Origin: Bilabrum cf. latius
Lineage: Eukaryota
DNA: 64,000 nt
Assembly: GCA_965178125.1 (NCBI GenBank)
Contig: OZ237766.1
Span: 62,001 to 126,000, forward strand
Direction of reading: 5' to 3'
Made by a program: the position numbers and the translations under genes. Of the stretch, positions 2,819-52,251 are shown piece after piece; the first letter of the stretch is position 1, and each line of letters opens with the position of its first letter. The notes below the pieces were generated by a model. It was not told where the DNA came from and searched no databases. It saw nothing but the letters and a program-made list of their open reading frames with translations.

Positions 2819-3036
2819 ATGAAATACTTGGTGTTGCGACATACTTTGTTGTACATGCACCAGTCGGATGCGTTGTCAGACGGTTGTCTTGCTGGAGGTT
2901 CGCTTGCCGACAGGGATTCCCTTCGGGTTCGTTCGTGAAGCAGGTGCTTGAATTGCTGCTGTGTGCTTCTCAATTGCGGCGCACTGCCAGCATAGCAACT
3001 CCTTTTTATCAAACATAATATACTCACGCTTGCTTT

Positions 3037-6933: not shown

Positions 6934-7252
6934 GACACACGCGCGGATCTACTGGGCAGGCAGACTGCGTCGCATCAGCAGGTGAGGACTGCTTGCCATC
7001 ACCGGCCGGGGACGGGGGGGGCTCGCGCAGTGGCACCGTGTGACACTCCGAGTCTCGCTGACGGTCCCGGTTCAAGCAAGCAGACTACTTCCTCGGCTTC
7101 GCACCTGCAATGCCTCCGGCGAGGCTACCGACGCGATGTACATAAGTTCGTTGCAGGGCAACTCGCTGCATCCTGTCTTGACTACCTAACTCGAAAACTG
7201 AATTGCAATTTAAATCAATTTCGACCGGGCAATCCATCTGGCTTCCGAGCAA

Positions 7253-20886: not shown

Positions 20887-22974
20887 ATGATGAGATCGTC
20901 CTTCCGCAAATTAGCTACAATCAGATAGCATTCTATTCTTAGATAGGCTTTGAACATCCGCAGCATGGCTACGGCGTGGTTCAAGGCCCCTGATGGCGTT
21001 CCGAGTTCCATTCTGCCCGGCTCCATGCGAGCGGTTGAATGCACGGGTGCTGGAGAGGAGACCCTGGAAGTGCTCTTCGTTAGATCAAAGGATGGGAAGT
21101 TGCACGCTGTAGAGCCTAAGTGCCCTCATAATGACGCGCCAATGGAAAAAGGAGCACTAGTAGACGGCAGTGCTTCTTGGCCAAAAGAGAATGGTACGGG
21201 TCCAACCGTGATTTGCCCCTGGCACCTTGCCGAGTTCGACGTATAGTCTGGGGGAAATTTGAACTATACCTCGTTTCGCGGCCTTCGGACGTTTCAAGTT
21301 CGGGAGGGCAGCGACGGTGCCACGAAAGTGGGAGTTGACGACGATAGCAGCTCCGAGATTGCAGCAGGTACTCGCGTGAAGGTGGATAAGCTTCCTGGTG
21401 CAGTGAGCTTCGTAGTACAGGATGGGCTTGAGGGACTCAGCGACATCGGCAAGCTGGAGGCCGACATAGTGGTAGTTGGGGCCGGGGCGGCGGGCATGGC
21501 GGCGGTGCAGGAGCTGCGGGATGGCGGCTTCGAGGGCTCAATTGTGGTGGTAAGCGACGAGAAATACCAGCCGTACGACCGAACCAAGCTGACAAAGCGC
21601 GTGATATCGTCGCCGGAAGACATAGCCTCCTTCACGATATATGGCTCCGAGTGGTTCGAGGAGCGCCGCGTGAGCCTCCTGCTGCAAACCCGCGCCTTTC
21701 AGCTGGAGCTGTTCGATCAGGGGAAGGAGGGCGAGCACGGTGGCCAGGTGTGGGTGAGTCCCGACGACGGAACCACCCGGTACCGGGGCTACACGCCACA
21801 GGAAAAGTTCGGGAGGCTCAGGTTTCGCAGACTAGTGGTCGCAACCGGTCTCATGGGGAACAACACGCGACTCCGCGACGACCCGCAGTTGGCGCTCAGC
21901 GCTCACGTGCTTCGGTCCGCAGACGATGCCCTGGAATTGTATGATAACCTGGACCGGGAAACGACCCGCGACGTCGTGGTCCTGGGCACGTCCTTCATCG
22001 GGATGGAGGTAGCCAACGCAGTGTCAAAGAGGATCGGATCAAGCGAGGCCGAGGGACTGGATAGTGTGACGATGATAACTGTTGCAGAAGAGCCGTTTGC
22101 CGGGGTGTTCCCCCTCCCCGTAGGCCGCATGCTCAGGCGACTAGCTGAGGAGAGGGGGGTTCGTTTCATGACCAGGAGCGGAATCCGCTCTGCCGGGGAG
22201 GATGTGTCCAAGCAGGGGTCTTTTAAATTGACTCGCGTGTCTACCGAATCCTAGGATTCGAACGGTGAGTGGAAGGAAGGACCGGAACTACGGTGCGATG
22301 CGTTGCTGATTGCGACAGGCAGCAGCGCCAGAATCGGGATGTTCCAGGGGTTAATAAACAACGACCAAACCAGCGCGTTGGACGAAAACTTGCGTATCAT
22401 AACTGCAGCTGGTGACAGGCAAGTTGCAACTCTTCCTGAGGGCGTAGTGTTTGCCGCAGGTGACGTCGTTGTTGCCCCACGAGGTCCGAAGGGCGAGGGA
22501 GACCCGGAGCCGATCGAGCACTGGGCCCACGCCCAGTCAGAGGGGATGTGGGTGGGGAGGCAGATACTGGAGCTGGAGGGGCTACGGAAGAATGCGCCGA
22601 GAACAAAGTCCATGGTGGAGGGGACAGGTACTGTGCCTTTCTTCTGGACCAAGGTATTCGGTGGGGTCATTCGGTTTGTGGGTCATGCACCGCCCGGCTG
22701 CGATGTGCATTTGGAGGGCGCGATGCGGGATGCTGGGGCAGAGGGAGATGTGAGAGATGAGCTGGCGGGGCCTTCGTTTGCCGCGTACTGGCACAAGGAT
22801 GGAAAGATACACGCAATGGCGGCGATGGGGCAGGATCCGGCTCCAGCTGCATTTGCTGCCCTGCTGCGAGCAGCGAGTACCGGGGGCGCAGAGCACCTCA
22901 TGCCATCAGCAGCAGACGTAGTGAGCGGCAAGGTAAAGGCCGCTGATTTGATCCGCATGCTATGTGATGCGTAA
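20887..22974 (+). CDS. Rieske [2Fe-2S] plus FAD-dependent oxidoreductase (AIFM3/Aif1-like), with probable mitochondrial presequence
   Basis: CPH...CPWH Rieske motifs, VVVGAGAAG, PYDRTKL, VVLGTSFIGMEVA, VFAAGD, IEHWAHA and VPFFWT. GCCACC-ATG start at 20887; TAGs at 20926, 20944, 21244 and 22252; TAA stop. Confidence 0.9.
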
Positions 22975-29172: not shown

Positions 29173-29245
29173 TACTGATACCGGGTCTCGATCCCGGGGC
29201 CTTATGCTTATCAGACATACGCTCTACCAACTGAGCTATACCAGC
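29173..29245 (-). tRNA. tRNA-Ile (anticodon GAT)
   Basis: Cloverleaf GCTGGTA TA GCTC-AGTTGGTA-GAGC G TATGT-CTGATAA-GCATA AGGCC CCGGG-ATCGAGA-CCCGG TATCAGT A, 73 nt, with no encoded CCA. A T6 run follows (Pol III terminator). Confidence 0.9.
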
Positions 29246-30202: not shown

Positions 30203-30711
30203 TGCGGCGGGGTCGTAAACGAGAATGATATGATTGAACGTTGTTCCAAGGTCTGGCGAGGCCGCCTTGCTGCAGCAGTGCGGCTGCATTGTGCGGAGTC
30301 GTCAATCAAAAGCAAGTGCCGCTGGGTCGTGTATCGGTGTTCCGCTGGGCACGATGGCTCACTTTCTTGCACTCCGCGTATCCTTTCTATACATAAGAAT
30401 CCGAAGATGCTACGTTGCACGCAGGATGAGCGTGGCCCGATATGCATGGATCCGATCCGCGCTGGCAACGTCCGTCGATGCATTTTATGGCAGAGGATCC
30501 GGCCACATTGTAGCCGCAGCACTGTCCGCCAATAGCCTCTGCGTATGCTACGTTAGATTGAACGGGCGAGGCTTGGTGCTGCTCTCATATATGCGGTGTG
30601 CAAGGCGGTACGAGTGTCCTTACCTGCAGTGTCTGCTTGGGGCCACGAACAGCACTCCCCGTCGACGCCACACGGGGTGCCTAGCTAAGCCTACCCGCCA
30701 ATTATGAATGC

Positions 30712-32913
30712 ATGGCCAAGCGCGAGGATTGCAACCTGAAGGTTCATATTACTAGCGCTGACGTGGCCATGTGTGTGCGACCACCCCGCATGGGCGCCGC
30801 GCTCTTTGCGACTTTTTTTGCGGAACCGGCAAACCGAAAGTGCAACAGCAACATACTCCTCAACGAAACCATGGATCATGGATCCGCGGCACAGTTCCAG
30901 CGCGAATCCATGCAGCAGCTCGGCATTGTTATGAGTCCTTTTCGCGTCGCAACGCGAGCTGAGAGGAAGTCGAGCGATGAGGGCGGCTCTGGAAGCGCCG
31001 GCAATCGAAGCAGAGTGAAGGCCAAGAAATAGAACGACCTGCGGGCGCGAGCGCGGGCGCTTCGCAATTCTGCCTCAACCACCAGCGTAGGCGCTGGTCG
31101 AACCGGCAGGGGCGGGAAGAGAAGCAGACGCAGCGGGCAGACGAGCACGCACCGCAAGAAGCAGGCTGCTGCCAAGCGAGCGGCAGCAGCCCTGGATGCA
31201 GAGCGCCTGCGCAAACGAAAGTTGGACAGCGATCAAACTGCCGCTCACCCGCAGAGCGCCTCTAGCGCCGTTCGGCCCAGCACCGCGAGCAGCGACGTGC
31301 TGATGGGCGCTGCCCCGCGCACACCGTCGCCAGGCATGGGTATGAGGAGCCGGAGCAGGAGCAGGAGCGGAAGTAGGGGCCACAGTTATGGCCACACTAA
31401 AAGCAAGAGCAAGACGAGCAAGGAGCCAGGACGGAGCCGCACAGAAACCGAGAGGCCGCTGGCTGGCACCGCCTTGGCCGCCGGTCGCCGTGCCAGCCCG
31501 ACCCACGGACACGGACACGGACACAGGGTGCGGTTTTCGCCGCCGGAAGGGGGGCAGCGGGACGATGAGGCTAGTGCAGGTGCAAGTGATACTGGTAGCA
31601 GGCTCGGGGGAGGGGGAACAAGGCGACATGGGGCGGCGGGGGGGGTGCCTATGCCGGTGCCGGTACTGGGGGCGTTTACGCTGGGCTCATCGTCTGGTGC
31701 GACGAATGGCGTTACAGACCTAGGTGCACTCTGTCTAGGAAGCTAGAGAGGCCCTCGAGTAGTGGACGGTGTCGGTAGCGTCGGTTCGGTGGTAGGTGTG
31801 ACGAGTGGAGCCTAGATTGAGTCCAGTGAGTTGCCAAGGTTCACTGGAGATGATGGTGCTGGTGCTGGTGCTGGTGCTGGTGCTGGTGCTGGTGCTGGTG
31901 CTGGTGCTGGTGCTGGTGCTGGTGCTGGTGCTGGTGCTGGTGCTGGTGCTGGTGCTGGTGGTGGTGGTGGTACACGGCCAGACACAGGGGTAGATCCAGG
32001 GGCATGGTCCGGAAGCATCATCAGGCCTGAGGGGAGCACGGGAAGGATGAATGCGACGAGCGTGCTAGCTATGGGGTTCCGCAATGCAGTGCGCGGCGCC
32101 GCCTCTCGCTTGATGGGTGCAGGTGGTCCGCCGCAGCCCGAACAAATGAAGGGAATGCCAGGGAGGGAACATGACGAGGTGCATGGACGCGAGAATGAGG
32201 AGGATGGTACTGGCAATGGCACTGTGGATGGTCCGGAAATGGACAGGATCCGCAGTGCGCTGCAGTCTATGGTGATTCCAAACATAGTCCAACGAGGTAG
32301 CGGGGCAAGCCACGCGCGGCTGCCGCTGGAAGTGCTGGTGGGGTAGGCAGGGTGGCGGGTGGAGGAGGGTGACTCGGGCCATGCTCTGGTGCAGGGGACG
32401 GAGAGTGTAGGTCCTCCTGGGAGTGTTGGTTATGAGGGGGTATCTGTGAAAAATCCGGATGCTCACGGCGGTGGTGTGACGAGTGCGAGTGGTGCATCCT
32501 CTCAAGGTGGCACGGATGCGGGTGGTCCCGGCACGCTACCGCCAGCCCCGACGCCAGCCGCCGCCCCTGCCTCCCGTCTCACTTGTCACACTGACGCGAT
32601 CCGGGAGGTCAGCCAGGCGTCAGGGGGTCCCGCGCGGCTTGTGGCTGTCAGGGAGAGGGCGGGCGGCAGTGCAGTGCAGCTGGGAAGGCGTGCCCACAAC
32701 AAGGGCAACGCACAGGGCGAAGAGAGAGCCATCGGGCCGAACGGGGGCGCAGCTCCGCCGCACCGTCGGAACAGCGGGGGTGGCACCATGTCCATCGATG
32801 GACTAGTGGCCGAAGGTGCCTCCATTGAACTGCCGCCGGCGCACGGTGGTGCGGCTGATGCTTCGACCTAGTAGCATCGTCCCCGCGTCTCGATCACGCT
32901 GCCCAGGCGGTAA
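30712..32913 (+). CDS. Hypothetical low-complexity, basic protein (start 30712 or 30871)
   Basis: Four track ORFs in one frame joined by TAGs (31030, 31744, 31813, 32344, 32869, 32872); ends at TAA 32911-32913. Confidence 0.6.
31855..31971 (+). repeat. (GGTGCT)n microsatellite encoding poly-(Gly-Ala), ending in (GGT)n
   Basis: Perfect hexamer array visible directly. Confidence 0.95.
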
Positions 32914-33383: not shown

Positions 33384-35960
33384 TCACCACCCCTGGTGCC
33401 CGCTGCCCTCCTCCAGCCACGAGCCCAGACTGGTTCCCGCGAGATCCAGCGACCCGCTGTGATCCAGGCCGGCAGACACGCCAGTGCCGGAGCCGGATGG
33501 CGCCGCGTGCGCTGCAATGCCGTGCACCTGGGACCGGCTGGAGGACGGCCCCGGGGCGGACCGGCTCGTGTGCATTGCACTGCTGTGCGGTTGCGAGGCA
33601 GGGGCCACGGTCCTCGGGCCTGAGTGGTGCTGGTGCAGGTGCTGGTACTGCTGGGGCTGGTGCTACGACTGCTGGACATGGGCCTGGGGGGCCTGGCTGG
33701 TTGCAACCAGCATCCTGCCGTCCTCCAGCACCGGCACAGCCACCCACCGGAATCCTGCCTGCTGCGGAGGCATGGGCGGGACGGCCATCTGCACCTGGCT
33801 CAGCGCCTGGGCCTGGGCCTGTGGTTGAGACTGGGACTCGGAATGGGAACGGGGCGCACCCATAGAGGAAGACCCGAAGGGCCAAGCGGAGACGGGCGCA
33901 CTCGTCACATGAGGCTAGTGCTGCTGCTGGTGGACGGTGCCCACCACCAGCCCTGGCTGCATCCGCACGCCATGGGCCTGGGCCTGGGCCTGGGCCTGGG
34001 GCTAGGCAGCGGCGGCAGAGGTCCACTGGGGCTGAGTCTGGGCGTGGGCCTGAAGCCGAGCCCGCTCGTGCACCATAGCACTCGTCACACCGATGCCCAC
34101 TCCAGCACCCACGCCCAGGCCCAGGCCCAGCCCCGCATCCACAGAGACTTCCGGCAGGTGCGCCAGGTCACTGCTGCCCATGGAGCCTCCCACAAGCTCA
34201 GGCTGTGCCTGGGGCTGCACCTGTGGTTGACCGAGCGCCATCTGCGCGATGGCCCGGTCGGGCGCGTCTCCTCCCTGCCACAGGGGCGAGCTGGAGGATC
34301 CCGCGTGTGACGAGTGCGCGTGCACGTCGGACCCGAGGCTCCCCGCGGCGAGGAGGCCAGAGGAGGCCCCCGCCGCCCCCATCCCAAGCGCGGCATCATC
34401 CGGCCCTACGCTCATGCCCAGGCTGGCCAGAGAGTGCTCCCGCCCGCCCTCCATCATCGCGTGGGACATGCCCACGCCGGGGACCAGCGCCCTGCCGTGG
34501 GCGTGCCTGTGTCCCCGTGGGCTGGCATGCCCGCTGCCGCTCGCCACTGCCCCACTGTGGAAGGACGCGCCCTCTATCTCGGAGCGGGTCGAGTGCATCG
34601 TGCCTGCACCTGCACCTGCACCTGCACCACCGTGCGGTGCACCGTGGTACCGCTCCCGGTGGAGCTCCAGCTCCTCGCCCGACACGCTGCGGGGACTCTC
34701 TATGGCGGGAAGCAGCTGCGCCCCCCCCTGGTGGGCGGGGGGTGACCCCAGCCCGGGGGGAGGACCCCTGGACACAAGACCGCCTGACCGTGCGCTGCCT
34801 TCTCCTCCTCCTCCTCCTCCTCCTCCCCCGTAGGAGCGCGCGCTGTCCGCGGCGGGGCTCAGGACACCCCTACCACTCGTGGTGGTTGGGTATCCCGTGT
34901 GACGAGTGCGGTCGTCGCCGTCCCCGCGAGCCTCCTACAGCCGGCTCAAGTCCATGCGGGGCACACCGGGGCGCGCCCCTCCTTGCCCGTGGGGTGCACC
35001 GGCCGCGGCCTTGTCGGAAGAGGACTACGCGGCCGATCCACGGCTGGAGTAGAGCGACGAGCGGGACCCGTTGGACCCGTGCAGCCTCAGGTTGTGCCTC
35101 GCCGAGCCTGAGCCTGAGCCGGAACCTGACCCCTCCCTCTGGCTGCTCGCGGCCATCGGTGCCCCGCCGGCGGACGACTCCAGCTTGCTCTCCATCTGCC
35201 GTTTTTGCTATCTTTCAATTGGAAACACGCCGCCCTGGGACGACTTTTGCATCCAGAGGCGCTGCCTGGCGCCGGATTGCGTGTTTGCCGCGGCGGTTGC
35301 TGGCGCGGTCGCTTGGGACCCGGCGGACATTGACACGCCGGAGGGAGCATCTCCGGTCGCTCCGGGCCTGCTTGGCCTATACTTTGATGAAGAGGATGCC
35401 TTGGAAGGAGGCTGCCACTTGCTGCTGCGAGCGGCAATCGCAGGGGAGGGAGCCGGGACGTATCGCGAACCAACACCAGCGCTCCGCTGCGGCTGCTTCG
35501 GGCGGTAGGGAGCACCAGACAGTCTTGCACGCGCAGAATTGGGGAGTGGTTGCTGCTCGGGTGCAGTAGTGGGACCGCTCAGAGGTTTGGTGCGAGGAGA
35601 CACGTGCTCGTCTGCCAATCCGCCGGTCGAGGCAGCCGAAGGTCCCTTGGCAACTGATCCACCCTGCTTGGCTCCCTTGATCATGTCTCGGGTTGCTGGA
35701 AATGCTTTGTTGAGGCTCATTCCAACCTCTTTAGCCACCTTGACGCTCTTTGGGTCGATAGCGGCGGAAATGTCGTCTTCGACGGGAGCAGGGCCTGGCG
35801 TCGCAGCGTCACGCCGGACGTCCCTCCATGAGTTCGACATTTCGCGGTATTCCTTCCGTTCTGCGCAAATCACGCAATAAGTCATTGCATGTGGTTCATA
35901 TTTCGGTGGACTTTTAGCTGAAGGAACGCTTTGGTCGGGTGAAATATCGTTCTTAAGCAA
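33384..35960 (-). CDS. Hypothetical Gln/Ser/Gly-rich protein; 5' end uncertain
   Basis: Track ORFs 35208-35960, 34002-34775, 33663-33908 and 33384-33608 share one frame. The gaps contain only TAG, often inside Q-rich tracts. Stop TGA 33384-33386. Confidence 0.65.
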
Positions 35961-36314
35961 AGTGCACCCGCGACTTGTGGTGGTCCGAATTTATCCGTAA
36001 ATGGCCTACACATAAACAGATGATTGCTGAAACTTACATGCTTATCTAAAATTACGCCCAAATCGCCAGCGACAGCTTGTCGCAGGCGCTTCGCGAGACA
36101 CTGGTGGGTCGCGAAAGATGCGCTCACCCATTGCAGCAAGACAGACCAAGAAGCAGAGCATCTTGTGTTCCGCAATTTGGCGCCGCGCAATGCTGCGGAA
36201 TGGTGGGGGCGGCTTCGAGTTTACCCTTCCAATGAATACACACGCCGTTGGGGAGTTCCCGGTGAATCAAACACAATTCTGAATGCCATATGTCCCATCA
36301 GCCTTTTTCGAGCA

Positions 36315-37580
36315 TCAGCACGTCGGGTTGCACGCGTACGGGTGCTCGGTGTGCAGCGTGCACGGCAGGTGCGTGTGCTCCTCGGCGGGGGCCGGCTTGC
36401 CCGCTGCCACTGCCCCCCACCACGCATCGAATGCCTCCTTGAAGCTGACCCCGTCGACCTTGATCGAGGTAAAGGTAGTCCCCTACGAGGCCACGTGCGA
36501 CACGCACGAGTGCAGGAAGGCCCCGTTCCCCGGCTGCGAGAACTTGGGGGTGCTCTTCATCGTGCCGAGCATGCTGCTCGCGTAATCGTTGAACTGCCCC
36601 ATCTGCGTGGAGTTGCACTGGTTGTAGTCCTTCCCGCAGGCCTCGTACCCTGGCAATCCGTTGCACGACGCCCGCGCAGGGTCGTTGGTCTGGGGGTCAA
36701 GCACCGTGGTGAACTCGCATTTCAGCTGCCAGCTGTCCCAGGGACAGTTCATGATGAAGGTGGGCACCTCGGTGTGAGCCCACGAGAACTGCGCCATTCC
36801 GCACTTCCACTCGTCACCCGAAGGCATGGCAGACACGCACCTCTGGTTCACACCACCCGTGGCGTTCTAGAACGTCATCGCGTACTTGATCTACATCGGA
36901 TACACGTAGTCCCCTGCCGCGTTCTGGCGGTCCAGGAAAAACCCGCTGGCCGGCGCAGCCGCCACCGTGGCCCGCGAGTACCTGTCCGAGATGTACTGCG
37001 AGTGAAGGTAGGCAGCCAGACCGCCCGCGGACCCCCCCGAGACGAGCACCTTGGAGGCATCGCTCAGCCCGTGCATCGTGTCCAGTTCCTTGAGGATGGC
37101 CTGCAGGTTGGCGAACCCGCGACACCGGATGGTCTCGTTCGTCCCAGGCACGGGGACGTCACCCTCGCGATTGCCCGCAAAACTCATGCCGTCGAGGTAC
37201 CAGAGCACCACGCGGTTCGCACCGGCCAGTGAGTTGTACTCTGGGATGGGCGAGCTGGGCCCGGCCTCGAATTTGAATGTCTTTGCGAGGTTCTTGGAGG
37301 AGCCCAGCTCGCCCTTGGACCGCTCGTACGATTCCACCTCGTCGTAGGACCACCCGCCCCCTTTGAAATAAAGCACCCAGGTGGATGCAAGCGCCGGATC
37401 GGACGCCTTTGTGAAGTAGTACGCGGGCGGGCTGCCGTCCAGAGCAGCCGCATCGTACTCGGCCACGATGGAAGGATCCACGATGAAGAGATCAAGATCG
37501 GGGTAGGCCTCGCCCGCGAATGCCGGCACCGCACCGCAGAGTGCCAAAGCAACCAGAGCCAATGAGAGTGATCTCGCCAT
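36315..37580 (-). CDS. Secreted pectinacetylesterase/Notum-family esterase
   Basis: Signal peptide MARSLSLALVALALCGAVPAFA; motifs LDGSPPAYY, YFKGGGW, YLDGMSFAG, GGSAGG and DSWQ; family-typical C-terminus CNPTC then TGA. The C-terminus is reached only by reading TAGs at 36891, 36867 and 36483. Confidence 0.9.
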
Positions 37581-37701
37581 TGCGCCGTTCAGGGCGATCG
37601 AGGCGAAGAGTAGCACGGTTGCACTTCGTTGGTGTTTTACCACTTTGAGCACGCTACATCGACCATACGCATCCTTCTCCATTTCCTGTTCAAAGTGTGC
37701 C

Positions 37702-38930
37702 ATGCAGGCAAGCATGTACGGAGTGGAAGACGACGATGTCTAGTTCATGGAGAGCATCGCGCAAGCTATGCATGTTGTGCCGGGCTAGACATCAGAAAAG
37801 GGCACACTCGGCGCCAGTTGCAGTAGTAGTGCCCTTGGGACGGATGGACCAGCCGGTTAGGAGTTTCCGGCTTTCTCTGAAAGCGCAACGGCATCTGCAG
37901 AGTCTTTAAGTTCTATCCAAGGCAACCCCGTTGTACAGGCTGGCGTAAAGCGAAAGAGGCGGGAGGACGAGACAGCAGCAGCAAACCAGCGCCACCAGGT
38001 CAACCCAGCATCCGATTCCAGGCAGCCGTGGCATTGGTCCCCTCTGCTGCAGCTTCCTGATGATGTAACATTGAACATACTGGGTGGGTTGGACGGCCAC
38101 ACGCTGCTCTCCGGCGTGGCTCCGAGCAGCAAGCGGCTGTACGTGCTCGCTCACTACAACGACCTTTGGCGGCAGCTGGTGCTGCCCCGATGGGGCGGTT
38201 CATTCGCACAGCCGACCGACTGGACTGGGTGCTGGAGAGACGCATTTGTGGCCACCGTCACGCGCGAGCGCGGGACTCCCGGTTCCTACCGCCCGCACGC
38301 CCCTCTGTCCCTGCGGGCCGTGTCTTCCACTCTGCTCCTGAAGCAGTGGAGGTGCGCCAACCTGCCCATCCGGCCGTTGCCCCGGGGGGTGGGGCCTGTG
38401 GTGCTAGGGGTGGGGCCTGCGGTGCTAGGGGGTAGCGATGGTTCTTGCTCTGACAGCCAGGGAGGGGGGAGCACCCCGGAGCCAGTGGGGGGTCGCGAGA
38501 TCGGCTCGGTGCAGGGAGGGGGGGAGCAGGAGGGGGGGCATGGGGAGGGTGGGGGGGCAGGCAGGGGTCATGTCTCCAAGCGAGCGAGGGTGCAGCGGGG
38601 GAGCACTTCTATCCCCCCAGGTGGGGACACGGAGCCCCCGGAGTGGCTCAGGGGTCCTTGCACAGTGCCAGTGGAGGAAGCTTCTGATTTGACTCCGGAT
38701 CGATTTGCGACCAAGTACGAGAGGCCAAACCTGCCTGTTATGGTGCGGGGCCTCACTCGTCACTGGCCAGCCATGCGGAAGTGGGCCCAGCCGGGGTACA
38801 TGGAGTCTTGCGCCGAGGAGGGCGCGGGCATGACGGGACGGGCGCCGAGTGCCAGCGGGGAGGCGGGGACTTCTCCTCCTTCCCTCCCAGCGACAGGAGG
38901 CTCCGGTGCATAGCATGTGCCGCCACCGCT

Positions 38931-38963
<33 letters not shown>

Positions 38964-40056
38964 TTCATCTTCATCTTCATCGGCTACCGCCGGCGCGCGC
39001 CCTGCATCCGGGCAGGGCACGGGGAAAGCGAAGGAGGACAAGTTTGTCGCGGGAGGCATCCGGTTCTCGATGCGGGAATACATGAGGTACTGCCTGGCTG
39101 CCGGGAGTGGTGTGACGAGTGGCCGTGGCACCCCCAGCGGAACCGACCCGGCCTACCCGGTCCCCGACGGCGCCGCGCACTGGGACGACCAGCACATGTA
39201 TCTTTTCGACCGGCAGCTGGCGCGCAAGGCACCCCGCATGATCGGGGACATCGACATACCCCCCATCTTTGACCACTCCAGAGACGCCTTTGCCCTCCTG
39301 GGCAAAGAGGCGCGCCCCCACTGGCGCTGGATCATCATCGGCCCCTCCCGCAGCGGCTCGACATTCCACAAGGACCCCAACGGGACGTGCGCTTGGAACG
39401 CGCCCGTGGTGGGCCGCAAGAAGTGGATCTTCCTGCCCCCCGAGCTGGCTCCCCCGGGGGTGCACGCCTCGTAGGATGGGGGGCAGGTGGCGGCGCCCCT
39501 CTCCCTGGGGGAGTGGTTCCTGGATTATTATTCCGAGTACAGGGCCTGGCTGCGGCGGATGGGCAGGGAGCCGCTCGAGTGCATCTGCGGGCCCGGTGAC
39601 GCGGTGTTTGTTCCCCAGGGGTGGTGGCACTGCGCGCTGAACCTGGACACCCCGTGCGTGGCCATGACCAGCAACTACGTGCCTCTCTCGTGCCCCACTG
39701 CGGTGCGGCGGGCCATCCGGTTCGCCGAGGAGCACCCAGACCAGGTGAGCGGGTATGATGAGGAGGGGCTGGCGGAGTCGCACGCGGCCCGCCTGAGGAA
39801 GGCCATCGAGGAGCGTGACCCGGGGGTGCACTCCGCCCTGCAGGCCCTGGACAAAGAGGAGGAGGAGGCCCGGAGGGAGAGGAACAGGAGGGCGGGAGTG
39901 GAGATGGAGGGGAGGTGGAGGGACGTGCTGGGGGAGCGGAGTAGCGTGTATTTTGGGGGACAAGAAGGAGAGGGGAGCGAGTCCGGGGGTGGGCTGTTTG
40001 GGGGTGCATCGGACGGTGGTGATGGTGATGACTAGGGTGGTGATCTCGGATGGTGA
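37702..40056 (+). CDS. F-box plus JmjC-domain protein (JMJD6/JMJ22-like); start approximate
   Basis: F-box-like LLQLPDDVTLNILGGLD; FATKYERPNLPV; YLFD; WRWIIIGPSRSGSTFHKDPNGTCAWN; GRKKW; PPGVHAS*DG; FVPQGWWHCALNL. TAGs at 37741, 37786, 37858, 38911, 39472 and 40033; TGA 40054-40056. Confidence 0.88.
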
Positions 40057-40133
40057 CAAAGTTCGAAATCTATTGCAATGTCTCCTCCCATCTCAGGATC
40101 ATGGCGTTCATTGCACGGTCCAATCGTTCATGA

Positions 40134-41701
40134 TCATTTCTCGAATCCAGTCGCCACAACCCTCCGCCCCCCCCTGCCCTTCCCCGACCGCCTGCCCTTC
40201 CTCAGCGCCTTCACACCACCTGCGCCTGCTCCTGACCGCCCGCCACCCTCCTCATCTTCATCTTCATCGCTGTTGCCCTCCGCCTGCTCCTGCGCCCCCG
40301 CGGGCCCACTCGACTGCAGCTGCAGGCCCACTCCGGGCGCGGCCTGCTTCTTGAGCTCGAAGGCTACCCCCCCCTCCCCCCTCCTCCTCACGCGGGACAC
40401 CTGCCCCACCGCCGCATCCCCCCGCGAGTCAACCTCTGACACCCCGTCTACCGCCCGCCGCGCGAGCCCTGCGTAGTCCCCCGCCCCCGCACTCGATTGC
40501 GCGGCGCCGCTCCCTTTGCGGAACCCCTCCCTCAGCCTCGCCGCCTCCTCCCCGCCCGCTTCTCTCCGCTTGGAACCCCCCTCCACCGAGGCCACGCCGC
40601 TGCCCTGCCAACCCGCCGACTGCCACGCGGACAGTTCCGCAGCGGCGTCGTGTGCGCGGCGCCGCACCTCCGCGGCCGCCTCCAGAGCGGAACCGCCCCC
40701 TGCCCCCAACGCAGCCCCGGCCATGCCCCCCCCTCCGTGGGGCAACACGGGCGGCACCACCGCCCTGTCCCCCCCCGCTTCCACGGCGGGACCCACGGCC
40801 CCTCCCCTGCCCTCCCCCTGGGGCCCCACCTCCCCCGCGTCGGCCAGTGCCAGCAGCCTGTCTGCCCGCTCCTTCACTGCCGCCCGCATCGCCGAGTGCA
40901 CCGCCCGTGCCCCCTGCAACGATGCCTCACGCATCGATCGGAGCGCCTCCACCCCGCAGCGCGCCGCCATCCCCGCCCTCACCACGGCCCCCGTCCTGGC
41001 CTCAAAGCAGAACTCCGCCGCCGCCCCCCCGCTCATGCCCTCCTCGTCACACGGGTCCACCAGGATGTTGCGACCAACTTGCAGGGCCCCGCAAGCGGCG
41101 GGCAGGCTCGACATGGCCACGCCCGCATCTGCCAGGGCCAGCGCCGCAGCGTTGGTGGCGCAGCAGAGGGCCCCACCGTCGTCGTGCAGGACCAGCAGGC
41201 TGACGTGCAGCTGCGATCGGGGGTACAGGTGCAGCATCACGCACGGCTCCAGACTACCCTTGATAGCCAGGGCACAGTCCACGGAGCGGTGGTCTCCGTG
41301 CCTCCTGGGCCTCCTCTCGATCTTGGCGAACGGGGCCACGGTGAACTCGACCGAGATGCCGGCCGCGCCGTGGTGCGCGCTGGAGCGGCGGTCTGCCTGC
41401 GTAGGGAGTAGTACTAGCGGACGCAGGATGAATTCAATATATTTCAAGACAAGAGACTGCTGGTTGAGCGAACTTGCGCTGCTCGTAGTACTGGCAATCT
41501 CACCTCCTGCGGTCCGTGTACCACGGCGTACACTTGCGTGAGCCCCATGCACATCACAGCGCTGCCATCCGGCTGGTCTCCAGACGATCCAACCGATGCC
41601 GAGTTGAATACGCCGAGCCTGCAATGGACCAATCTTCCTTCGCTGGGCAATCTGCCGTCAAGCCGGTACCCAGCGAGATTCACGTAGTCTCTAGAAGACA
41701 T
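40134..41701 (-). CDS. RRP41: Exosome complex RNase PH-like subunit RRP41 with a low-complexity C-terminal extension, 2 exons
   Basis: GYRLDGR...DGSA...GLTQVYAVVHGPQE | ...YPRSQLHVSLLVLHDDGG...NAAALALADAGV. GT-AG intron 41397-41503; TGA stop. Confidence 0.88.
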
Positions 41702-42133
41702 TGGTCAAGTCCAAGTAGATTTCTGGTGGTTTAGGTAGAGTATAATCTATGACGCCACGTGTTTGTCCTTTTTGTAGGTGCAAGCGTTGTACAATGCAGT
41801 TTCTATGCGGAGAAGAGCAGTTGCAGCTCCGATCAAAACTGGAATGCCTCACAAAGTTCGACGGTCGAACCAATTCGATGATTTGAACGGTTTCAGTACT
41901 TTGCTGGTGATCCAGCTCGGTTTTCTCGAAAATCTCCTAGATTATCAATAATAAGATTATTGTCGGTGCTCCTATTATATCTTTGCGGATTCTGAACCTC
42001 ACAGCGGCAGCTGCATTGGCTTCAAAGGCTCACCAGCAGCAGTGCGGTCAGGTGCTGCACAAAAAGAGGTCAATCGAAAAGGTACACAGCCTCTAAGCCG
42101 CACTCAACCCGTAGTTTTAGTAGTAGTTTATCA

Positions 42134-43864
42134 ATGAATTCGAATTCGTCGCGTGCTAGCGGACCGCGGACAAACAGCAGGAGCGTGATTGTGCGGTAGC
42201 GAGATGGAGTCGACGGAGCCGTCACAGGCGCTAAGCAACATGCACGCGCAGCTGCTTCCACTCTTCGGGGCAGTAATCCTACATCTCAGCCATCCAGTCG
42301 GAGGCGGCAAGCCAGGCGCCACGTGGTCACGCCAGTGGCTGCAGGAGCCGCCAGTGCCAGTGCAACCAAGGCAGCGGCAGGAGCTGCCCGCTGTCCGCTG
42401 CAGCCACCACAGCTGCCGGTCCCCGGGCCAGCGCGGGGGGCGGCCACCACTGCGGCCACCCGCTCCAGCAGGCATGCCGGCACTAGGCCGGCCCGCGGCA
42501 GCGGAACCTCTAGGGGCGCCGCGCACACCCGACCGCCTTCCTCCTGGCGCCCCTCTGCCCTGGCCAGCCACTTGGCCCCGCTGACTGCCCTGTGCGAGAG
42601 CAGAGAGGACGCCGCACTGGTGGGTGCCATGGGGGACTGGCTGCAGGGGGGGAGGGCCAGGCGATGGGCCGCGGGGGTGGGGTCAGAGGCGGCTGCCGTG
42701 CCATCGACGGAGGTGGGTCCATTGCCTCTTTGGGCCACTGCCGCGCCTAGTGCGGAAGCAAGCGTGGGACCAGGGAAAGCAGCAGCAGCAAAACAGCTTC
42801 AAGAGAGAGGGAAAGCCAGTGGAGATGACCCGCGCGCCGCCCGCCTGGCACGCTGGCAGGCCGCCCTCGATCAGTCGGTTACAACCGCCGTAGTTGTTCC
42901 CCAGCGGCTGGTCTCTGCCATGCGGGCGGTGCTAGCAGATCGCGCGGAGCCCGATGGTGTGACGAGTGAGGGGGAGGGCAGGGGCAGGCACCGACCCAGG
43001 TCCAAGCGCAGGTCCAGGGGGACGAGTGGGGCGGGGGCCGCGTCTGCCGTCCCACCGGGGGGTGTCCAGGTGGGCGTGCTGGGGGCGAGGGGTGGGGGTA
43101 GGGCCGGTCGGTTGGCGCGGCAGGCCCAGCAGCAGGTACAGCGCGGGGAGGAAGACCGGAACAAGGAAGAGGCCCTGGGGCTGGTGCAGGGATGGGAGCT
43201 CGAGGGGCTGCTGGCCCCCGTCCTGGGGGCAGGGAACAAGAAAGGGATGGATCCAGGGAACAGAGAAGGCGCAAGCATGGCACAATCAAAGGGGACAGGG
43301 ACAGGGACAGGGGCAGGGGCGGGGCGGGCGGCGGGTGACGTGTGGGTCGAGGAGATGAGCGGTGCCGCGCGATCCGGGGCCGGTGCCGCAGCCCACGGCT
43401 CCGTGGTCAAGATGCAGCTAGCAGATCGACGGCTCGTCGCGGTTCATTTTGATTCCGAGTCCGTTGCGCGGCGCCGAGAGTTGGTTCCGCTGGTGGTGCT
43501 CTCGACGCGCGAGCTGCACCAGTGGGCCTCCATGGTCTTGAGAGCCCTGAGGGGAGTGCGGTCGAATGCCAGCGGGATTGCCAGCGGAGCCAGCAGCAGC
43601 AAGAAGAAAAAGGGGGCCGGAAGTGGAGCGCAAGCTGGGGATGGTGACGCCGACGCTTCCTCCTCGTCGACCCCCCCAGCGAGCACTCCTCCGCTGAGGA
43701 GGGCCTTGGATGCCTTCAAGGCGGCGCAACACGCGGCGAGGGCGAGGGCCAGCGCGAGTGTGACGAGTGCTCAGATGGGCCCGCTGGTGTTTCCCGCCGG
43801 TGGGCTGGCCGGTCCCTCGCCCCCGCGCTCCTTGGCGTCTGCTGCAGCGGCCCGTGGGGGCCCT

Positions 43865-43896
<32 letters not shown>

Positions 43897-46800
43897 ATCG
43901 CAGATGATGAGGATCGACTTAGAACAGCTGAGGCAGGCATAGCTACGGGATGGCTGTGTGACGAGTGAGGGCTGGGCGATGCTCGAGGAGGCCATGCGTG
44001 GAGCCGGGTACGGGCCCGGCGCGTGCAGGAGGGGCGTCAACGTCGACCCGATCTCTGGTCTCATGTGGCCTGTGAGGATACCCGTCAAGCGGTGGCCGGC
44101 GGGTCCGCACCTGATCGCACGGCAGTGCGATGCACCCGTGCGTCCGCTCGTGTTCGAGTACCCGAGTGACGAGAGCAGCCTGCAGGCCATCGCCAGAGTG
44201 CACTCCCCCGAGGCGGCTCTCTCGGAGTCCACCCCCGGGGAACACAGGAGGGACTCGTACGGCATTTCGGGGAGCGGGACATCCCCCCTGCTTTCTCCCA
44301 AGCAGATGCGCCGCCATGCAGACGCGGTGCGGCGCCGGGCCCTGGAGGCGGTGGAGCTGCTGGTGGACCAGGGGTCCTTCGTGGGGCAGCGGGTGCATCG
44401 CACTGCAGCCCTGCTGATGGCCTACGGGGGGTCCTCTGTGACGCTCCCGGACCTGCTGCCGGCGCCGCGCAACCAGGTTCCGCTCGAGTGGGCGGGCCCC
44501 TGCTGCGCGCTGGAGGAGGGGCTGCGGCTGGCCGCGGATCTGCCATGCACCGTGGCGGCGGGGGTGGCGGCTTGGGCCGTGGCGGGGCTGCGGGCGGCCT
44601 GCAGCGCAGGCAGGGCCGCCGATGGGGACTTTGAGAGGGGAGAGGGGGAAGGCGCGGATGTGCAGGTGCACGGCATTGCGGTGCAGGGGCCTATGCCCCG
44701 TGCAATGATCCGCGAGATCCGGGCAATGGTGGCTGCGGCGCCGCGCATGAGGTTCCGCGACGCGGTGGCCGTGCTGCAGGCGATAGAGTCTGGCGAGTGT
44801 CTGCAGTGGACTCGATGGCCGCCGCCCACTGCGGAACCGGAGGCGCCGCGCAGTTCCATGCGAGGGTCCTCTGCTGCTGGCGATGGTGCCACGATCCAGT
44901 TGCCAGCGCTTCGTGAAGGTTCGCTCTGGCGCTCGGCGTCTTCGTCGCAGCGCCGTCTGGAGTGCATGCAGCGGGCGGGGGCCTGGCTGCGGAGACTGCT
45001 GCAGGAGCTGCGGCCGATGCTTCACGCTCGGCAGTTGGCGGTGCAGCGGCTGTACTTTTTGTGGCGAGCAGCGGACACGTCGCGCCACTTGGAAGTCGTG
45101 AGAGAGGAGGAGAAGCAAAGGGCGATAGAGAAGGAGAAACAATCGCTGGTAGGGAGGGGGGCAGGTGCATTGGTAGAGGGTGGGGCGGGGGACGGCCCAC
45201 AGGCACCGATGGAAGTCGAGGAAAGTGCAGGGCAGGATGGCTGCGCGGCGCCGGGCAGCGATGGCGAGAAGCCGACTGGTGCTGGAGACGGCCGCATGCC
45301 GGAGACAGAGAGGGAGGAAGGCGACGAGGACGGGGACGGGGACAGGGATGGGGGCAAGGAGGAAGACAATGATCGTGCAGAGGGGGCTGCAGCCGACCAG
45401 GGTGCAGCGCATGAAGGTGCTCGCACCGAGGCTGGTGTAGCAGCAGCCCCAACGCCTAGCTCCCAAATGCCCGCAGCTCATGCTCCCGCCCCCCGAGCAG
45501 GGGCGAAGCGGAAGAGGCCTTTGACTCGGAGCCAGAAATCCGCCAGCGAACCGCCGTGCACGCCACCCGCGCGGACAGTGACCAGGCGCACCAGTCCCCG
45601 TCGGCGCGGCGCCGGTTCCGCAGTCACCCCGTCTCCCCGGCAGCGAAATGCAGGCCATGCTGGGGATTCTCGGAAGAACGGCAGTGGCAAGGGCAGTGGC
45701 AATGGCAGAGGCAAGGGTAGTGGGCGGGGGCGGGCGCCTCCTCGTGCGCCCCGACCCACTCGCCGCAGCGCCCGGCTGTTGAGGACGCCCGTGGGAGCAG
45801 AAGGACGTTTGCAGCAGCATGGTATGGAGGGTGAGGGAGACACAGAGGCCCGGGGCGAGAAGGATGAAGAAAAGGAGGAATAGGGTGATGGTGATGCCAA
45901 GGACGCGCAGGGGCGGGGAGACCCGGGGTCAGCCGCGGAGCCGAGTCCAAAGAAGAAGAGGAGGAGGGAGGCGGGGGCAAGCGCCGGTGGCAAGGAGCCA
46001 GAGCACCAAGTTGGCAGCACCAAAGCGCTGCCTGCTGCAGACGACTAGGAAGAGCACAAAGACAAGGGCAAGGAAGAGCACGATGAGGAGAAGAGTAAGC
46101 TGGCACTTGCAGCGGCAGAGGCAGCGGCCGCCGAGCTGGCGGCGGTGGCCATGGGTGCATCGCATGGTGGCGCAAGGTTGGGTCCAGTGTCTAGACTACT
46201 CGCTCAGAAGAAGGGCGCCGCGCAAACCGGTTCCGCATCAGCTCTCGTCCATTCGAGGGGGCCTCCAGCCGCAGCTGCAGCCAACGGTGCCACGAAGCCG
46301 AGCGCGGTGGTGCGTGACAGGCAGGCCGCAGAGAAGGAAGCCGCAGAGAAGAAGGCCGCAGGGAACGCGGTCGCAGGGAACAACGACACCGGGAGCAAGG
46401 CCGCAGGGAACAAGGCCAATGCCGCCGGTTTGCAATTCCCAGGCCGCAGCCGCCGCCGGCCCCGTTGTGAAGTGTGCGGGGAGACGTATGCTGGAGGCGC
46501 GCTGGCCGAGCACATTAAGTCGCGGGTGCATGTGAGGAGGCGGATGGCGGCGGTGCGAGAGGGCACCAGGTTGGCTGGGTCGTTCGTGACTGCCATGCTG
46601 GACGATAGAGAGAGAGAAAGGGGGAGAGGGGGGGCTTCCGGGTCGAGCGCGGGTGCATCGCATGGCGGTGCACCGTCCTCTGTAGATCCCTCGCTGGTGG
46701 TCGGCATCGGGGAGGGGGAGGAAATGCCGGCCTCCTCTCCTGCAGCCCCCTCCTCCTCCTCCTCCTCCTCCTCCTCCTCTTCGTCTTCTTCTCTCAGCGG

Positions 46801-49800
46801 TGGTGTGAATGGTGTGACGAGTGCGGTGGCAGAGGCCCAGCAGGTGCGTCCGCTCATGCTCTCGCCCCAGCCCGCGCCGCATACGGGCTCCGGCTCCGGA
46901 TTTGGTGTGACGAGCGCACCCGTCTCAACCTCCACCCCACCGGCGCAGCATGCGGCCTCCCTGCTCTCACCGGCGCCGCGCAGCGGAACCGCCTCCCCAG
47001 CAGGCTCCCAGGCCACCGCCGGCCTCGAGGACGCCCTCGACAGGACCGCCCTCCTGTCCCCCGCACTCGTCACACGGGGCGGGAAGGGTGCCCGGCCCCG
47101 GATTTCCGTGGGCGCTGCCGGCGCCCGGTGGGGCGGGCCCTCCTCGGGTGCCGGGTCTGGTGGAGTCGTCCACAGGGGCATGGGCAGGGGCATGGGCATG
47201 GGCAGGGGCATGGGCTTGGGCATGGGCATGGGCATGGGCATAGGCAGATCACCGGCCGGGCTATCCCGCGGTGACGTGTCCGCATGGCTTGAGTGGGAGG
47301 CATCTCCCGGCCGATCGGAGCTGGAGGCAGCCGCGGGGTTCGAAGAGCCGCTTCTTGAGGCGGCTGTGAGGCACGGCGTTAGGGCCATGAAGGCGCGTGT
47401 GACGAGTGCGAGGCGCTCTCGGTGGGCGGCGCTGGTGCGTTGGGCGGCGACGGAGGGTGCTCGGGTGCCGACGCAGGTGCGGGGCTGCAAGGCCCGTGGA
47501 AGGTGTGACGAGTGGGTCCAGCGGGCGCTGGCAGCTCGCGTGCAGCAGTTCAGGGCGAGCCGTCCGCACCTGTGGCTGGGGTACACGATCCACCGAAGGT
47601 TCCCCAAGCACGGGCAAGTTCGCCGGCTGGGACTGGACGAGGCGTGGGGCATGTGCGCGAGGGGGGAGGCGGAGGGGCTGCTGCGGGACATGGCAAGGCA
47701 GGCCAGGGAACAACCAGGGCTGGGGGCACAGCTGAGGAAGGTATTTCTGCGGGCCGTGCCGGTGACCCCCTGGGTGGCTCCACCGGTGGATGGCCAGGGA
47801 ACAAGTGAGACCGACACCGGCGGTGGTGCCAGCCTGGGTGCGGGGGCCCGCAGCCTGCTGCATCTGGCTTTAGGTGCTAGCGGGCGAGGCCTCGAAGGTG
47901 GAGGGGGAGCAGCAGCACGAAGCTATGCCAAGACCAAGAGGCCCAGTAGCCCGGGCAGCTCCAATGCAGGCGGGGAGGCTGCTGCCAACTCGATGCCGCT
48001 GTCAGAGGAGCAGGCGGACTTGCTGCTGCCTACCTCTTTGGCCGCCGATGCAGACCCATGGGATGCTGACATGCCGGCGGGGGTGCGCCGGCCGGTAGTG
48101 CGTGTGGATGGGCTGCCTTCGGGCTGGCTGCAGGGGGTGCACAATCAGGACGACAGCCTGCGTGTGGCGAGTGCGGGGGCCTTGGGACGGGTGCTGGGGG
48201 ATGCAGTGCGGCGGGTGCTGGCAGAGGGGAAGAGTGGTCAAAGCGACCACGGTGATCAAAGCGGCGCGCAGGGGAAGGGTGGACAAAGCGGTTCCGCTGT
48301 AAATCTCGCCTCTGCTGTGGCGGATGCGGCGCGAAAAGCCGGTGTCGCCGTAGCAGAGGGTTTCGAGGCGAAGGCTGCGGGGGCCGCTGCATCACGGCTG
48401 GAGGAGGCAGGGGTGCCTAAAGATACCACCAGTGCCAGCAGTGGTGGCGCTGCTAGTGAGGGATCCAGATCGATGGATAGCGACCAAGATTCGAAGAGCT
48501 CGGTGGCAAAAGGCAGCTCCACCTCTGCACATGCTAGTGGAGGTGGTGCCGCGCAACAATCGCCACTCGTCACACCGGCCTTGCCGTCCTGGGTGCAGCA
48601 GTCCGTGGGGGCAGAGCGCGCCCTCCGTCGCGCCGAGGACCGCATGGTGGAGGGCGGCATGGAGGCCAGGTGTGTGCCTGTCAAGAGCATGGCCAGGCCG
48701 TCAGACGGGCCGCGAGCCGGGCTCATGCGTCGGATCGAGACGGCGAGGCGGGCGGGCGTGCCGGAGGGCGTGCTTGCGGACTGGATGCAGGGGCTGGAGC
48801 GCGCCGTGAAGGGGCTGGAGATGCACCTGGGCTGCAGAGGGGATGGTGAGAGGGAAAGGAGTGGAGAAGGGGACAGGGATCAGGAGCAGGACGGGCTGTG
48901 GGACGTGACGGGTTGGCTGGAGGGCAGGGGCGAGGACCCGGTGCCGCTCGCCTCTTCTTCTTCTTCTTCTTCCCCTTCTTCTGATGCGGCTGCTGCATCC
49001 TCTTCATCGTCTTCTTTCTTGCATTCTGGTTCAGGGCGGACACGCCGTGGGTTTGGCACTCCGAGCGCGGTGCACGTGCTGGTGGGCAGGTCCCTGCCGC
49101 AGCTCAGGAAGCAGCGGGCGGCGGCTGCTCTCGCCATGGAGCAGCTCGAGGAGCGGGAGCGGGAGCAAGCTGGGGGGAGTGGGCGCAGCGGGTCTGGTGG
49201 AGGGCTTCGTATGAGCAGCAGTGCAGTGCAGGCTGCGAGCTGGTCGTCCTCCCCAATCGGCGATGGGGACGATGATAACGAGGATGGTTGGTCCTCCAGC
49301 GGGGGCTCGGACGCAATGGGAGAAGGAGAGGAGGAGGACCGGGCTGCGCCGCGATTCGATGCATCCATGCCTCGCAAAGACACGGACCCTCTTGGCCCCG
49401 GTCGGCTGGTGGGGCTCAAAGAGGCCTTCAGGGGGCTGAGGCGGATGCTCAGGCTAGTGCCACAGGTGCTGGCGGGCAGGCTGGTGGAGAGGGCGAGCGC
49501 GGCCCGGGGTGCCAGGGCGCGTGCGTGGCGGGGGAGGAGGGAAGCAAGGGCCAGGGCGCTGGTGCTGCGTGCCCAGGGGCTGAAAGAGGGGTGTGACGAG
49601 TGGGATGCGGCCATGCGGCAGCTGGAGTCGCAGGGCTGGATTCCTGTGCCCAGCGCGGTGGGTGTGGAGCATGACCCTGACACGTTTGCTGACGTGTTGG
49701 CGGAGTTGTAGGTCCGCCTAGAGCAGAGAGCTGACGAAGAGGAGGGCGGAGACGACGATGCTACTGCTGGGGAACAGATGGTTGCAACCAGTGGATCGGC

Positions 49801-50553
49801 TGCATAGGCGCAGCAGCCGATGGCAGACGGCACGGTAGACGATGTCGCCTCTGCACCAGCAGCCACCATGGAGGGCGACCGGGCCAGCTCGGCCGGGACT
49901 GGCACGGATGCATCGCAGTCTATCCAGGAATTGAGAGCACCCGGGTAGCTGGCGGGCAGCGGTGTTCAGAGAACCAGACACGGTGATGGAGAAGCAGGTG
50001 CAGAGGCCGGTCGAGGGGCTGGCTAGTCGGCTCGCTCGGCAAGTCAGGTGCCGCAACAGAAAGCAGTATCTCTCGATGGTGCAGGTTAGGCCGCTATGGA
50101 GCAGGACGATTGCAGCCATGGTGCATCGCATGGTGGTGCAGCCATATCCCGGCCTCCCTCGCAGCAGCAGATGTTCGCAGGCAGCAAGGAAAAGAAAGAA
50201 TTTGACGCTGGTGCTGGTGCTGGTGCTGGTGCTGGTGCTGGTGCTGGTGCTGGTGCTGGTGCTGGTGCTGGTGCTGGTGCTGGTGCTGGTGCTGGTGCTG
50301 GTGCTGGTGCTGGTGCTGGCAGTGCTATTGCAGGGATCGATGGCGGGCACCGTAGGGGCCCTGAAGCTGCTGCAGAGGCTACTCCTCCACCAGCCAAACG
50401 CGATGGCAACGATTAGCCCAGTGAATACAGAGGTGTGCACAAGGCAAGTAATGAGGGGGCAGGGAGAGAAGCAGGCACCAGCCATCAGCAGCCACCCAGC
50501 GCTGCACTGCCAATCCAAGCCCCGGCCGATGCTGCTTCTGATGCTGCCGCTGA

Positions 50554-50648
<95 letters not shown>

Positions 50649-52219: not shown

Positions 52220-52251
<32 letters not shown>

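Follow-up and report, generated by a model that had tools for sequence, protein, structure and literature searches.

In-frame TAG codons in a Notum-family esterase gene and its neighbours are most probably read as glutamine

The pectinacetylesterase (PAE)/Notum-family gene carried by the 64,000-nucleotide stretch of contig OZ237766.1 analysed here (positions 62,001 to 126,000, hereafter the window) raises the question of whether a gene with three in-frame TAG codons is a broken gene or whether TAG stands for an amino acid in its genome, and if so for which one. Our analysis makes it very probable that the window is nuclear DNA of a guanine-cytosine (GC)-rich and intron-poor microbial eukaryote, tentatively a stramenopile, in which UAG is a sense codon, most probably for glutamine (Gln), UGA and UAA terminate, and the esterase is intact. 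The gene was translated from a minus-strand frame spanning 36315..37805 and itself occupies 36315..37580 on that strand, as one exon of 421 codons plus TGA whose M1 is the ATG at 37580. The three TAGs, all of which appear as CTA on the plus strand, are codon 230 (36891..36893, YPM-TAG-IKY), codon 238 (36867..36869, MTF-TAG-NAT) and codon 366 (36483..36485, SHVAS-TAG-GTT), the last one lying four codons past the presumed catalytic His. When they are read through, the protein begins MARSLSLALVALALCGAVPAFAG and finishes with HPYACNPTC directly before the TGA terminator (36315..36317). The strings on which the original prediction was based (YPM-stop-IKYAMTF-stop-NATGGVNQRC, HSCVSHVAS-stop-GTTF and CNPTC-TGA) were found exactly in the minus-strand translation, with TAG as the only internal stop, and the family-typical CNPTC end does lie beyond the three TAGs, as was claimed; CNPTC is also the consensus C-terminus in both of our homologue alignments. 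The span given at that time, 36315..36893, is bounded by the terminator on one side and TAG230 on the other, whereas the whole gene extends to 37580.

The PAE profile of Pfam (PF03283) matches the read-through protein in one single unbroken stretch, from residue 42 to residue 387 and from profile position 20 to 348 of 355, with an E-value of 5.3e-62 and 210.4 bits against a curated cut-off of 26.6. Since this match is uninterrupted, with an unchanged frame and no gap at any of the TAG codons (the alignment to Notum behaves likewise), homology continues past the three TAGs in one frame. The residues presumed to form the catalytic triad, as in Notum, are Ser184 in GGSAGG (the presumed nucleophile, 37029..37031, minus strand), Asp282 (36735..36737, minus strand) and His362 (36495..36497, minus strand). 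All three are invariant in 36 sequences and align with Notum (Ser184 with the Ser of SAGG, His362 with the His of SCIGH), and the Asp and the His are also at least 90% conserved in the larger of the two homologue sets described below. As Asp282 and His362 are encoded downstream of TAG230 and TAG238, termination at the first TAG would cost two of the three triad residues. In addition, the AlphaFold model of the read-through protein is of high confidence (mean predicted local distance difference test score, pLDDT, 92.4; predicted template modelling score, pTM, 0.90), and past residue 230 its ten-residue blocks mostly score 86-98, with lower values, 79 and 73, confined to the eleven residues at the C-terminal end. 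The top matches of this model in the PDB are Notum structures, with target-normalised TM-scores of 0.79-0.85 over about 410 columns, so that the read-through esterase is predicted by the model to fold as a full Notum-like hydrolase. The likeness to Notum and to PF03283 covers the full-length profile match, the SAGG motif, the conserved Asp and His, the CNPTC end and the fold, although the Notum chains are only 21-22% identical to the esterase of the window. Among the matches listed, full-length proteins are at most 50% identical to it; the named homologues that were looked up are choanoflagellate transcripts, which are uninformative for placing the organism, and a search for relatives of the PAE in prokaryote genome contigs gave 24 pattern matches, none of them confirmed. 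The N-terminus looks like a signal peptide when judged by eye, and the gene would encode a complete, probably active secreted hydrolase, putative as far as sequence and model allow. It should be noticed that the N-terminal half of the esterase has short counterparts in protein catalogues, P0298 (163 aa, 78% identity) and P0016 (244 aa, 64% identity), which probably represent genes of closer relatives whose models were shortened by the standard code or by contig ends.

The reading of TAG is not peculiar to the esterase gene. Eight homology-supported genes of the window, with 4760 codons in all, contain 20 TAGs in frame and not a single TAA or TGA, while the same genes hold 26 TAG, 11 TAA and 87 TGA in the +1 off-frame and 24 TAG, 6 TAA and 85 TGA in the +2 off-frame; TAG is as dense in frame (20 per 4760 codons) as off frame and shows no sign of avoidance. 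The same pattern is seen within the esterase frame alone (TAG 3, TAA 0 and TGA 0 in 421 codons, with 7 and 4 TGA in its two off-frames). The longest open frame of the window grows from 1221 to 3790 codons when TAG is taken as sense, and this maximum does not move when TAA is. Sixteen long frames were examined for their terminators, ten of which end in TGA and six in TAA; note that long open frames were delimited by TGA and TAA only, and a terminating TAG would escape notice in such a count. TAA is scarce in the window (131 + 142 occurrences), which makes the case for TAA as a stop weaker. Pfam domains were recognised in long TAG-bearing frames of very different kinds (ABC-F, 2-oxoglutarate oxygenase, Rieske/FAD oxidoreductase, ankyrin, F-box/JmjC and methyltransferase). 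Overall, TAG is a sense codon here, and TGA and TAA act as stops. This bears directly on the idea that the esterase is a decaying pseudogene or that its TAGs arose through mistakes in assembly or sequencing. Read with the standard code, the gene does have three breaks in its frame. However, TAG is the sole interruption, and the absence of TGA and TAA from 4760 conserved codons has to be compared with about 86 TGA per off-frame: genes with in-frame TAG and without TGA are therefore not pseudogenes, as random decay would yield TGA too. Errors fare no better, since the letters of the esterase gene are the same in contigs from four runs of three studies, one of which (X1) is possibly the source of the window itself. 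Given also the selection past the TAGs, the intact Asp and His found there and the diverged relative with different TAGs in the same gene, to which we now turn, we consider decay or error highly implausible as an explanation.

When metagenome contigs were searched with the esterase protein, two loci were recovered, L001 and L002, which overlap identically and hence represent one relative and not two independent ones. The window shares its gene order with L001 (1-3938) and L002 (1-2441), with first a JmjC gene, next a PAE gene that points away from it and, in third place, another conserved gene. In the window, the first of these is an F-box/JmjC (JMJD6-like) gene on the plus strand (37702..40056, start approximate), divergent from the esterase, with six in-frame TAGs and a TGA end; it is supported by Pfam matches to Cupin_8, JmjC and F-box-like and by a match to JMJD6 (E-value 1.6e-31), and its orthologue in L002 is 59.6% identical over 559 aligned positions. 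The PAE of L001 is 69.5% identical to that of the window over 393 residues, ends in CNPTCHQ-TGA and contains six in-frame TAGs in its aligned part, twice the three of the window. Synonymous sites are saturated between the two PAE genes (proportion of synonymous differences, pS, 0.60-0.76), with a proportion of nonsynonymous differences (pN) of 0.18-0.27. The ratio of nonsynonymous to synonymous rates (dN/dS) is 0.16 between TAG230 and TAG366 and 0.23 past TAG366, and the PAE sequence downstream of the TAGs is under purifying selection. Both lineages therefore translate what lies past the TAGs, and the altered reading is older than their split. The GC content of the relative is 0.58, lower than that of the window.

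A further possibility is that the TAGs never reach the ribosome, either because they lie in tiny introns or because they are edited to CAG in the mRNA. The organism does appear to splice: in each of the runs X5, X6 and X7, one contig omits positions 35861-36037 just downstream of the esterase gene (177 bases, reading GTAAGT...CAG on the minus strand), while the contig of X1 is continuous across them. Over the esterase itself, contigs of these three runs are collinear with the DNA, without gaps and without one differing letter (X5 36038-37603, X6 36038-37598, X7 36229-37256), and no well-supported joint falls within the coding sequence. The single joint listed there (37253-37322, from one X7 contig with a depth of 4.4 and a shorter side of 27 letters) touches no TAG. 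The depth of the X5-X7 contigs is strongly unequal between adjacent genes, and we read these contigs as spliced transcripts that retain the TAGs, a transcript-like status that is guessed. Moreover, the Pfam and Notum alignments cross each TAG codon gapless, and the loss of a single codon would not count as splicing. Taken together, hidden introns or editing are exceedingly improbable, and translation of UAG as such remains our explanation. The contig ends at 37598-37603 in X5-X7 hint, though weakly, at the 5' end of an mRNA. Over parts of 37800-41000 the cover of X5-X7 is thin or absent and was excluded from the evidence. As a side observation, the omitted segment 35861-36037 sits between the TGA of the esterase (36315) and the ATG at 35840 of a Gln-rich frame (33384-35840), and the joined contigs extend from the esterase into this downstream gene; the two genes may share or overlap transcripts, or the intron at 35861-36037 may belong to the 5' untranslated region of the Gln-rich gene.

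Which amino acid does UAG then encode? The strongest support for Gln comes from the orthologue in L001, where CAG stands opposite both TAG230 and TAG238 of the window, TAGs of L001 stand in turn opposite CAG at Q326 and Q349 of the window, and the TAG past HVAS (codon 366) is common to both; this last pair was made by eye, as the aligner put a gap there. A second orthologue comparison is offered by the conserved, putatively RNase PH-like gene at 40134..41657 on the minus strand (a label assigned by eye), the window copy of which has no TAG and presents CAA (Gln) and AAG (Lys) opposite TAGs of L001. Across three orthologue pairs and 17 TAG sites, the partners are Gln five times (four CAG and one CAA) and Glu, Tyr, Lys, Met and Pro once each; the remaining sites are one Leu in a poor alignment, which was dropped, two members of the shared TAG/TAG pair and four sites opposite a gap. 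TAG thus exchanges mainly with CAG and CAA between orthologues. With the ten usable partners, the BLOSUM62 log10 likelihood is -10.0 for Gln, -12.6 for Glu and -12.9 for Lys, a margin of more than 2 log10 units in favour of Gln over the next residue.

The orthologue comparison is independent of the columns of the protein family, which were tabulated at the three TAG positions, as the original prediction had proposed, in two homologue sets that overlap and are not independent of each other. The first set holds 35 of 50 word-index matches, 15 having been removed for partial coverage of the query (P0016, P0029, P0031-P0036, P0038, P0039, P0041 and P0048-P0051). The second holds 115 of 150 cluster representatives, 35 having been removed by eye where the best stretch fell short of the last TAG column, with the residues in the columns not consulted. 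In the larger set Gln leads at TAG230 (46 of 114, followed by Glu with 21), at TAG238 (37 of 112, with Ser 23, His 21 and Ala 14) and at TAG366 (19 of 76, with Glu 9, Leu 8 and Ser 8), in each case as a plurality and not as a majority of the residues. The smaller set gives Gln 17 and Met 9 at TAG238, and Gln in 23 of 29 non-gap residues at TAG366. It had been claimed that the column before NAT is usually Gln; Gln does lead there in both sets, but 'usually' somewhat overstates a plurality. Summed over the three columns, the log10 odds are 2.76 for Gln, 0.56 for Met and -0.46 for Glu in the 35-sequence set, and 2.57 for Gln, 1.06 for His and 0.93 for Met in the 115-sequence set, so that Gln is best in both, by 1.5 to 2.2 log10 units over the next residue. 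As a scale for these figures, at the ordinary CAG-Gln positions of the esterase Gln is the plurality in only 3 of 11 columns of the 115-sequence set, and the TAG columns are therefore, if anything, more Gln-like than those of ordinary Gln codons. As further examples, TAG381 of L001 falls on the best-conserved Gln column of the family (76 of 115), and the 64% identical fragment P0016 has Gln at the TAG230 column. Judged from these sequences, which come from one window and one relative, Gln is clearly the best residue for TAG overall, and the assignment of UAG to Gln proposed from this gene is the one best supported; among the genes of the window, the esterase also proved to be the best single case for the read-through argument, as had been anticipated.

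A plausible mechanism would have cytoplasmic ribosomes reading UAG as a sense codon, most probably Gln, by means of a tRNA-Gln with anticodon CUA, one base off the CUG of an ordinary tRNA-Gln. Such an anticodon would pair with UAG and mismatch UAA; as UAA is still a stop, exactly this anticodon is expected in the tRNA that reads UAG, while eRF1 would probably have lost its affinity for UAG. The same argument on anticodon and eRF1 is made for Iotanema spirale in section 9 of PMC5304391, which describes a T32G change in the eRF1 of that species. No eRF1 gene lies in the window. An Rfam scan of the window found one tRNA gene only, a tRNA-Ile with anticodon GAU (29173-29245, minus strand, 66.1 bits), and a tRNA scan of L001 and L002 found none. 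This tRNA gene is contained in a long open frame, in an upstream portion that is probably non-coding. The isoleucine tRNAs of nuclear genomes mostly carry AAU, and the GAU anticodon may reflect a strong preference for C-ending codons.

Several observations weigh against a sense UAG that is translated as Gln. As for translation itself, no tRNA with anticodon CUA was found in the 64-kb window, L001 or L002; the RNA nature of X5, X6 and X7, which come from two studies, is a guess, with X5 marked 'probably DNA'; and contigs lose rare variants, so that partial RNA editing would be compatible with them. As for the residue, Glu leads the TAG230 column in the 35-sequence set (Glu 11, Gln 6, Arg 6), one TAG of L001 faces the AAG mentioned above, TAG701 of the JmjC gene faces GAG (Glu) with 14 of 16 flanking residues identical, and TAG124 of the same gene faces TAT (Tyr) in a well-aligned stretch. 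The Rieske and FAD oxidoreductase (AIFM3-like) gene (20887..22974, plus strand, with four in-frame TAGs and a TAA end) does not favour Gln at any of its four TAGs: with the 21 best-scoring Rieske-bearing matches aligned out of 104, one column has Ser 5, Lys 4, Arg 4 and Gln 3, another has Lys 9, and the other two TAGs lie in the unaligned presequence. Likewise, in the low-complexity protein a Gln stands within two residues in 10/54 cases for TAG, 110/429 for Gln and 35/182 for Trp, a weak enrichment. The AIFM3-like gene does not point to any residue because two of its TAGs are in the presequence and two in variable columns, and the in-domain TAG of the JmjC gene is opposite an Arg in a variable loop of the JMJD6 structures, so that this site does not identify the residue either.

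These points make room for a UAG that is sense but encodes another residue, Glu in the first place and then Lys, Met, His, Tyr, Ser or Leu, or one that is decoded ambiguously; UAG is indeed Glu, Leu or Ser in other eukaryotes (as described in PMC11687900), and Glu is second at TAG230 in the 115-sequence set. However, Gln exceeds Glu by about 2.5 log10 units in the orthologue pairs and by about 3.2 in each of the family-column sets, Glu is missing altogether from the TAG238 column (0 of 35 and 0 of 112), Gln codons are five of the ten usable orthologue partners, and Leu, Ser and Tyr score lower still than Glu. Neither Leu, Glu, Tyr nor any other residue dominates the three columns overall, the outcome that the original prediction had named as speaking against Gln, although Glu does come ahead at codon 230 in the smaller set. 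We therefore regard another residue as rather improbable and retain Gln.

In a related scenario, UAG would be Gln within genes and yet act as the terminator close to the 3' end of certain genes, as happens in codes without a dedicated stop, and such dual codes exist (PMC4967479). Near the end of the JmjC gene (40033-40056, plus strand) a TAG stands seven codons ahead of the TGA (GGDGDDXGGDLGW, X being the TAG), and this TAG may be either sense or the true terminator; the orthologous contig L002 ends short of this position. Delimiting frames by TGA and TAA only would also hide a terminating TAG, as noted above. On the other hand, the C-termini that can be checked by homology, those of the PAE and of the third syntenic gene, end in TGA in both lineages, and TAG is as frequent in frame as off frame. 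A dual role of UAG is unlikely in our view, and a sense UAG with UGA and UAA as stops remains the preferred reading.

Several features of the neighbourhood deserve mention in their own right. The window has a GC content of about 64% (0.56-0.73 per 2 kb), long single-exon genes and abundant low-complexity runs. On the plus strand, a low-complexity open frame of 3789 codons (41996-53365) has 18 in-frame TAGs and no Pfam match; a unit of about 25 residues occurs in it twice, each copy having an adjacent pair of TAGs (SKSID-TAG-TAG-RGTAS). Long microsatellite-encoded runs, (TS)n of about 50 units and (GA)n, were found within the open frames at 7214-9886 and 30562-32913 (both plus strand), and runs like these are typical of the whole window. 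Within the JmjC gene, each of the four runs shows a jump in summed contig depth, to 1340-5930, at 38874-39140, and numerous loose ends occur at 38931-38981; the pattern looks like that of a simple repeat (a Ser run in the protein) drawing contigs from many places.

The placement of the organism is tentative, as the sequence evidence comes from one ABC-F protein. Its best named match is a bicosoecid protein (52% identity), and in a quick 32-row tree of this one gene, in which the window protein has a long branch, its group also contains a brown alga, the same bicosoecid and further sequences (Shimodaira-Hasegawa-like approximate likelihood ratio test, SH-aLRT, 98), which suggests a stramenopile. 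A search of a protein atlas with the ABC-F protein for taxonomy returned only generic ABC-F clusters, mostly bacterial.

Changes of the nuclear genetic code are rare, those that split UAG from UAA are rarer, and reassignments of UAA and UAG together (UAR) are usually explained in AT-rich genomes. The code that the window sequence suggests is of the type of NCBI table 15; the code is already known, and the lineage appears to be new for it. In open-access papers and preprints (supplements apart), we found no report of a UAG = Gln code in stramenopiles, bicosoecids or GC-rich protists, and none is listed in the legend of Fig. 4 in PMC5304391 either. The known changes that separate UAG from UAA, as given in PMC5304391 and PMC11687900, concern a member of Fornicata, a single rhizarian, one genus of green algae and a small number of ciliates. 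It is possible, at somewhat less than an even chance, that we are dealing with the first case of a reassigned nuclear stop codon in a lineage related to stramenopiles, an old change from UAG to Gln that is present in at least two lineages with saturated synonymous sites and fixed in a GC-rich genome with TGA as the main terminator. If this is true, the GC-rich and TGA-dominated setting would be the opposite of the AT-rich genomes usually invoked for UAR reassignment, and the decoupling of UAG from UAA could then be studied in a system that is culturable or sequenced and belongs to neither ciliates nor metamonads. As one more independent case, a protist that is both GC-rich and intron-poor would also be a data point on code change as such and would test the need for AT pressure. 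In practical terms, every gene model of this organism and its relatives is wrong under the standard code, and public catalogues contain proteins truncated at TAG, of which P0016 with its 244 residues seems to be an example.

Compared with known systems, the window most resembles the organisms with table 15, in which only UAG is Gln: Iotanema spirale, a member of Fornicata (PMC5304391), and Protocruzia tuzeti together with the phyllopharyngean ciliates Hartmannula sinica and Trochilia petrani (PMC11687900). In these four, as here, UAG is sense with Gln as its best reading, UAA and UGA terminate, and the assignment was drawn from Gln-conserved columns. In contrast to them, the ABC-F protein of the window groups, in the quick tree, neither with ciliates nor with metamonads, and the window is GC-rich; moreover, UAA is the primary terminator according to PMC5304391 in I. 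spirale, whereas TGA is commoner in the window (10 versus 6 TAA). The table 6 codes, in which UAR is Gln (many ciliates, hexamitin diplomonads, some ulvophyte green algae, oxymonads and Amoeboaphelidium), share with the window the same amino acid and the same presumed route through a tRNA-Gln with an anticodon one base off CUG or UUG (PMC5304391 and PMC2984419), but in the window TAA is absent in frame from 4760 codons and ends 6 of 16 long frames, so that UAA is apparently still a stop. Finally, UAG is likewise decoupled from UAA in the rhizarian exLh, where it is Leu, in Scotinosphaera, where it is Ser, and in an uncultured ciliate, where it is Glu and UAA is Lys (described in PMC11687900 and PMC5304391), but in the window the TAG columns and the orthologue partners agree much less well with Leu, Ser or Glu than with Gln.

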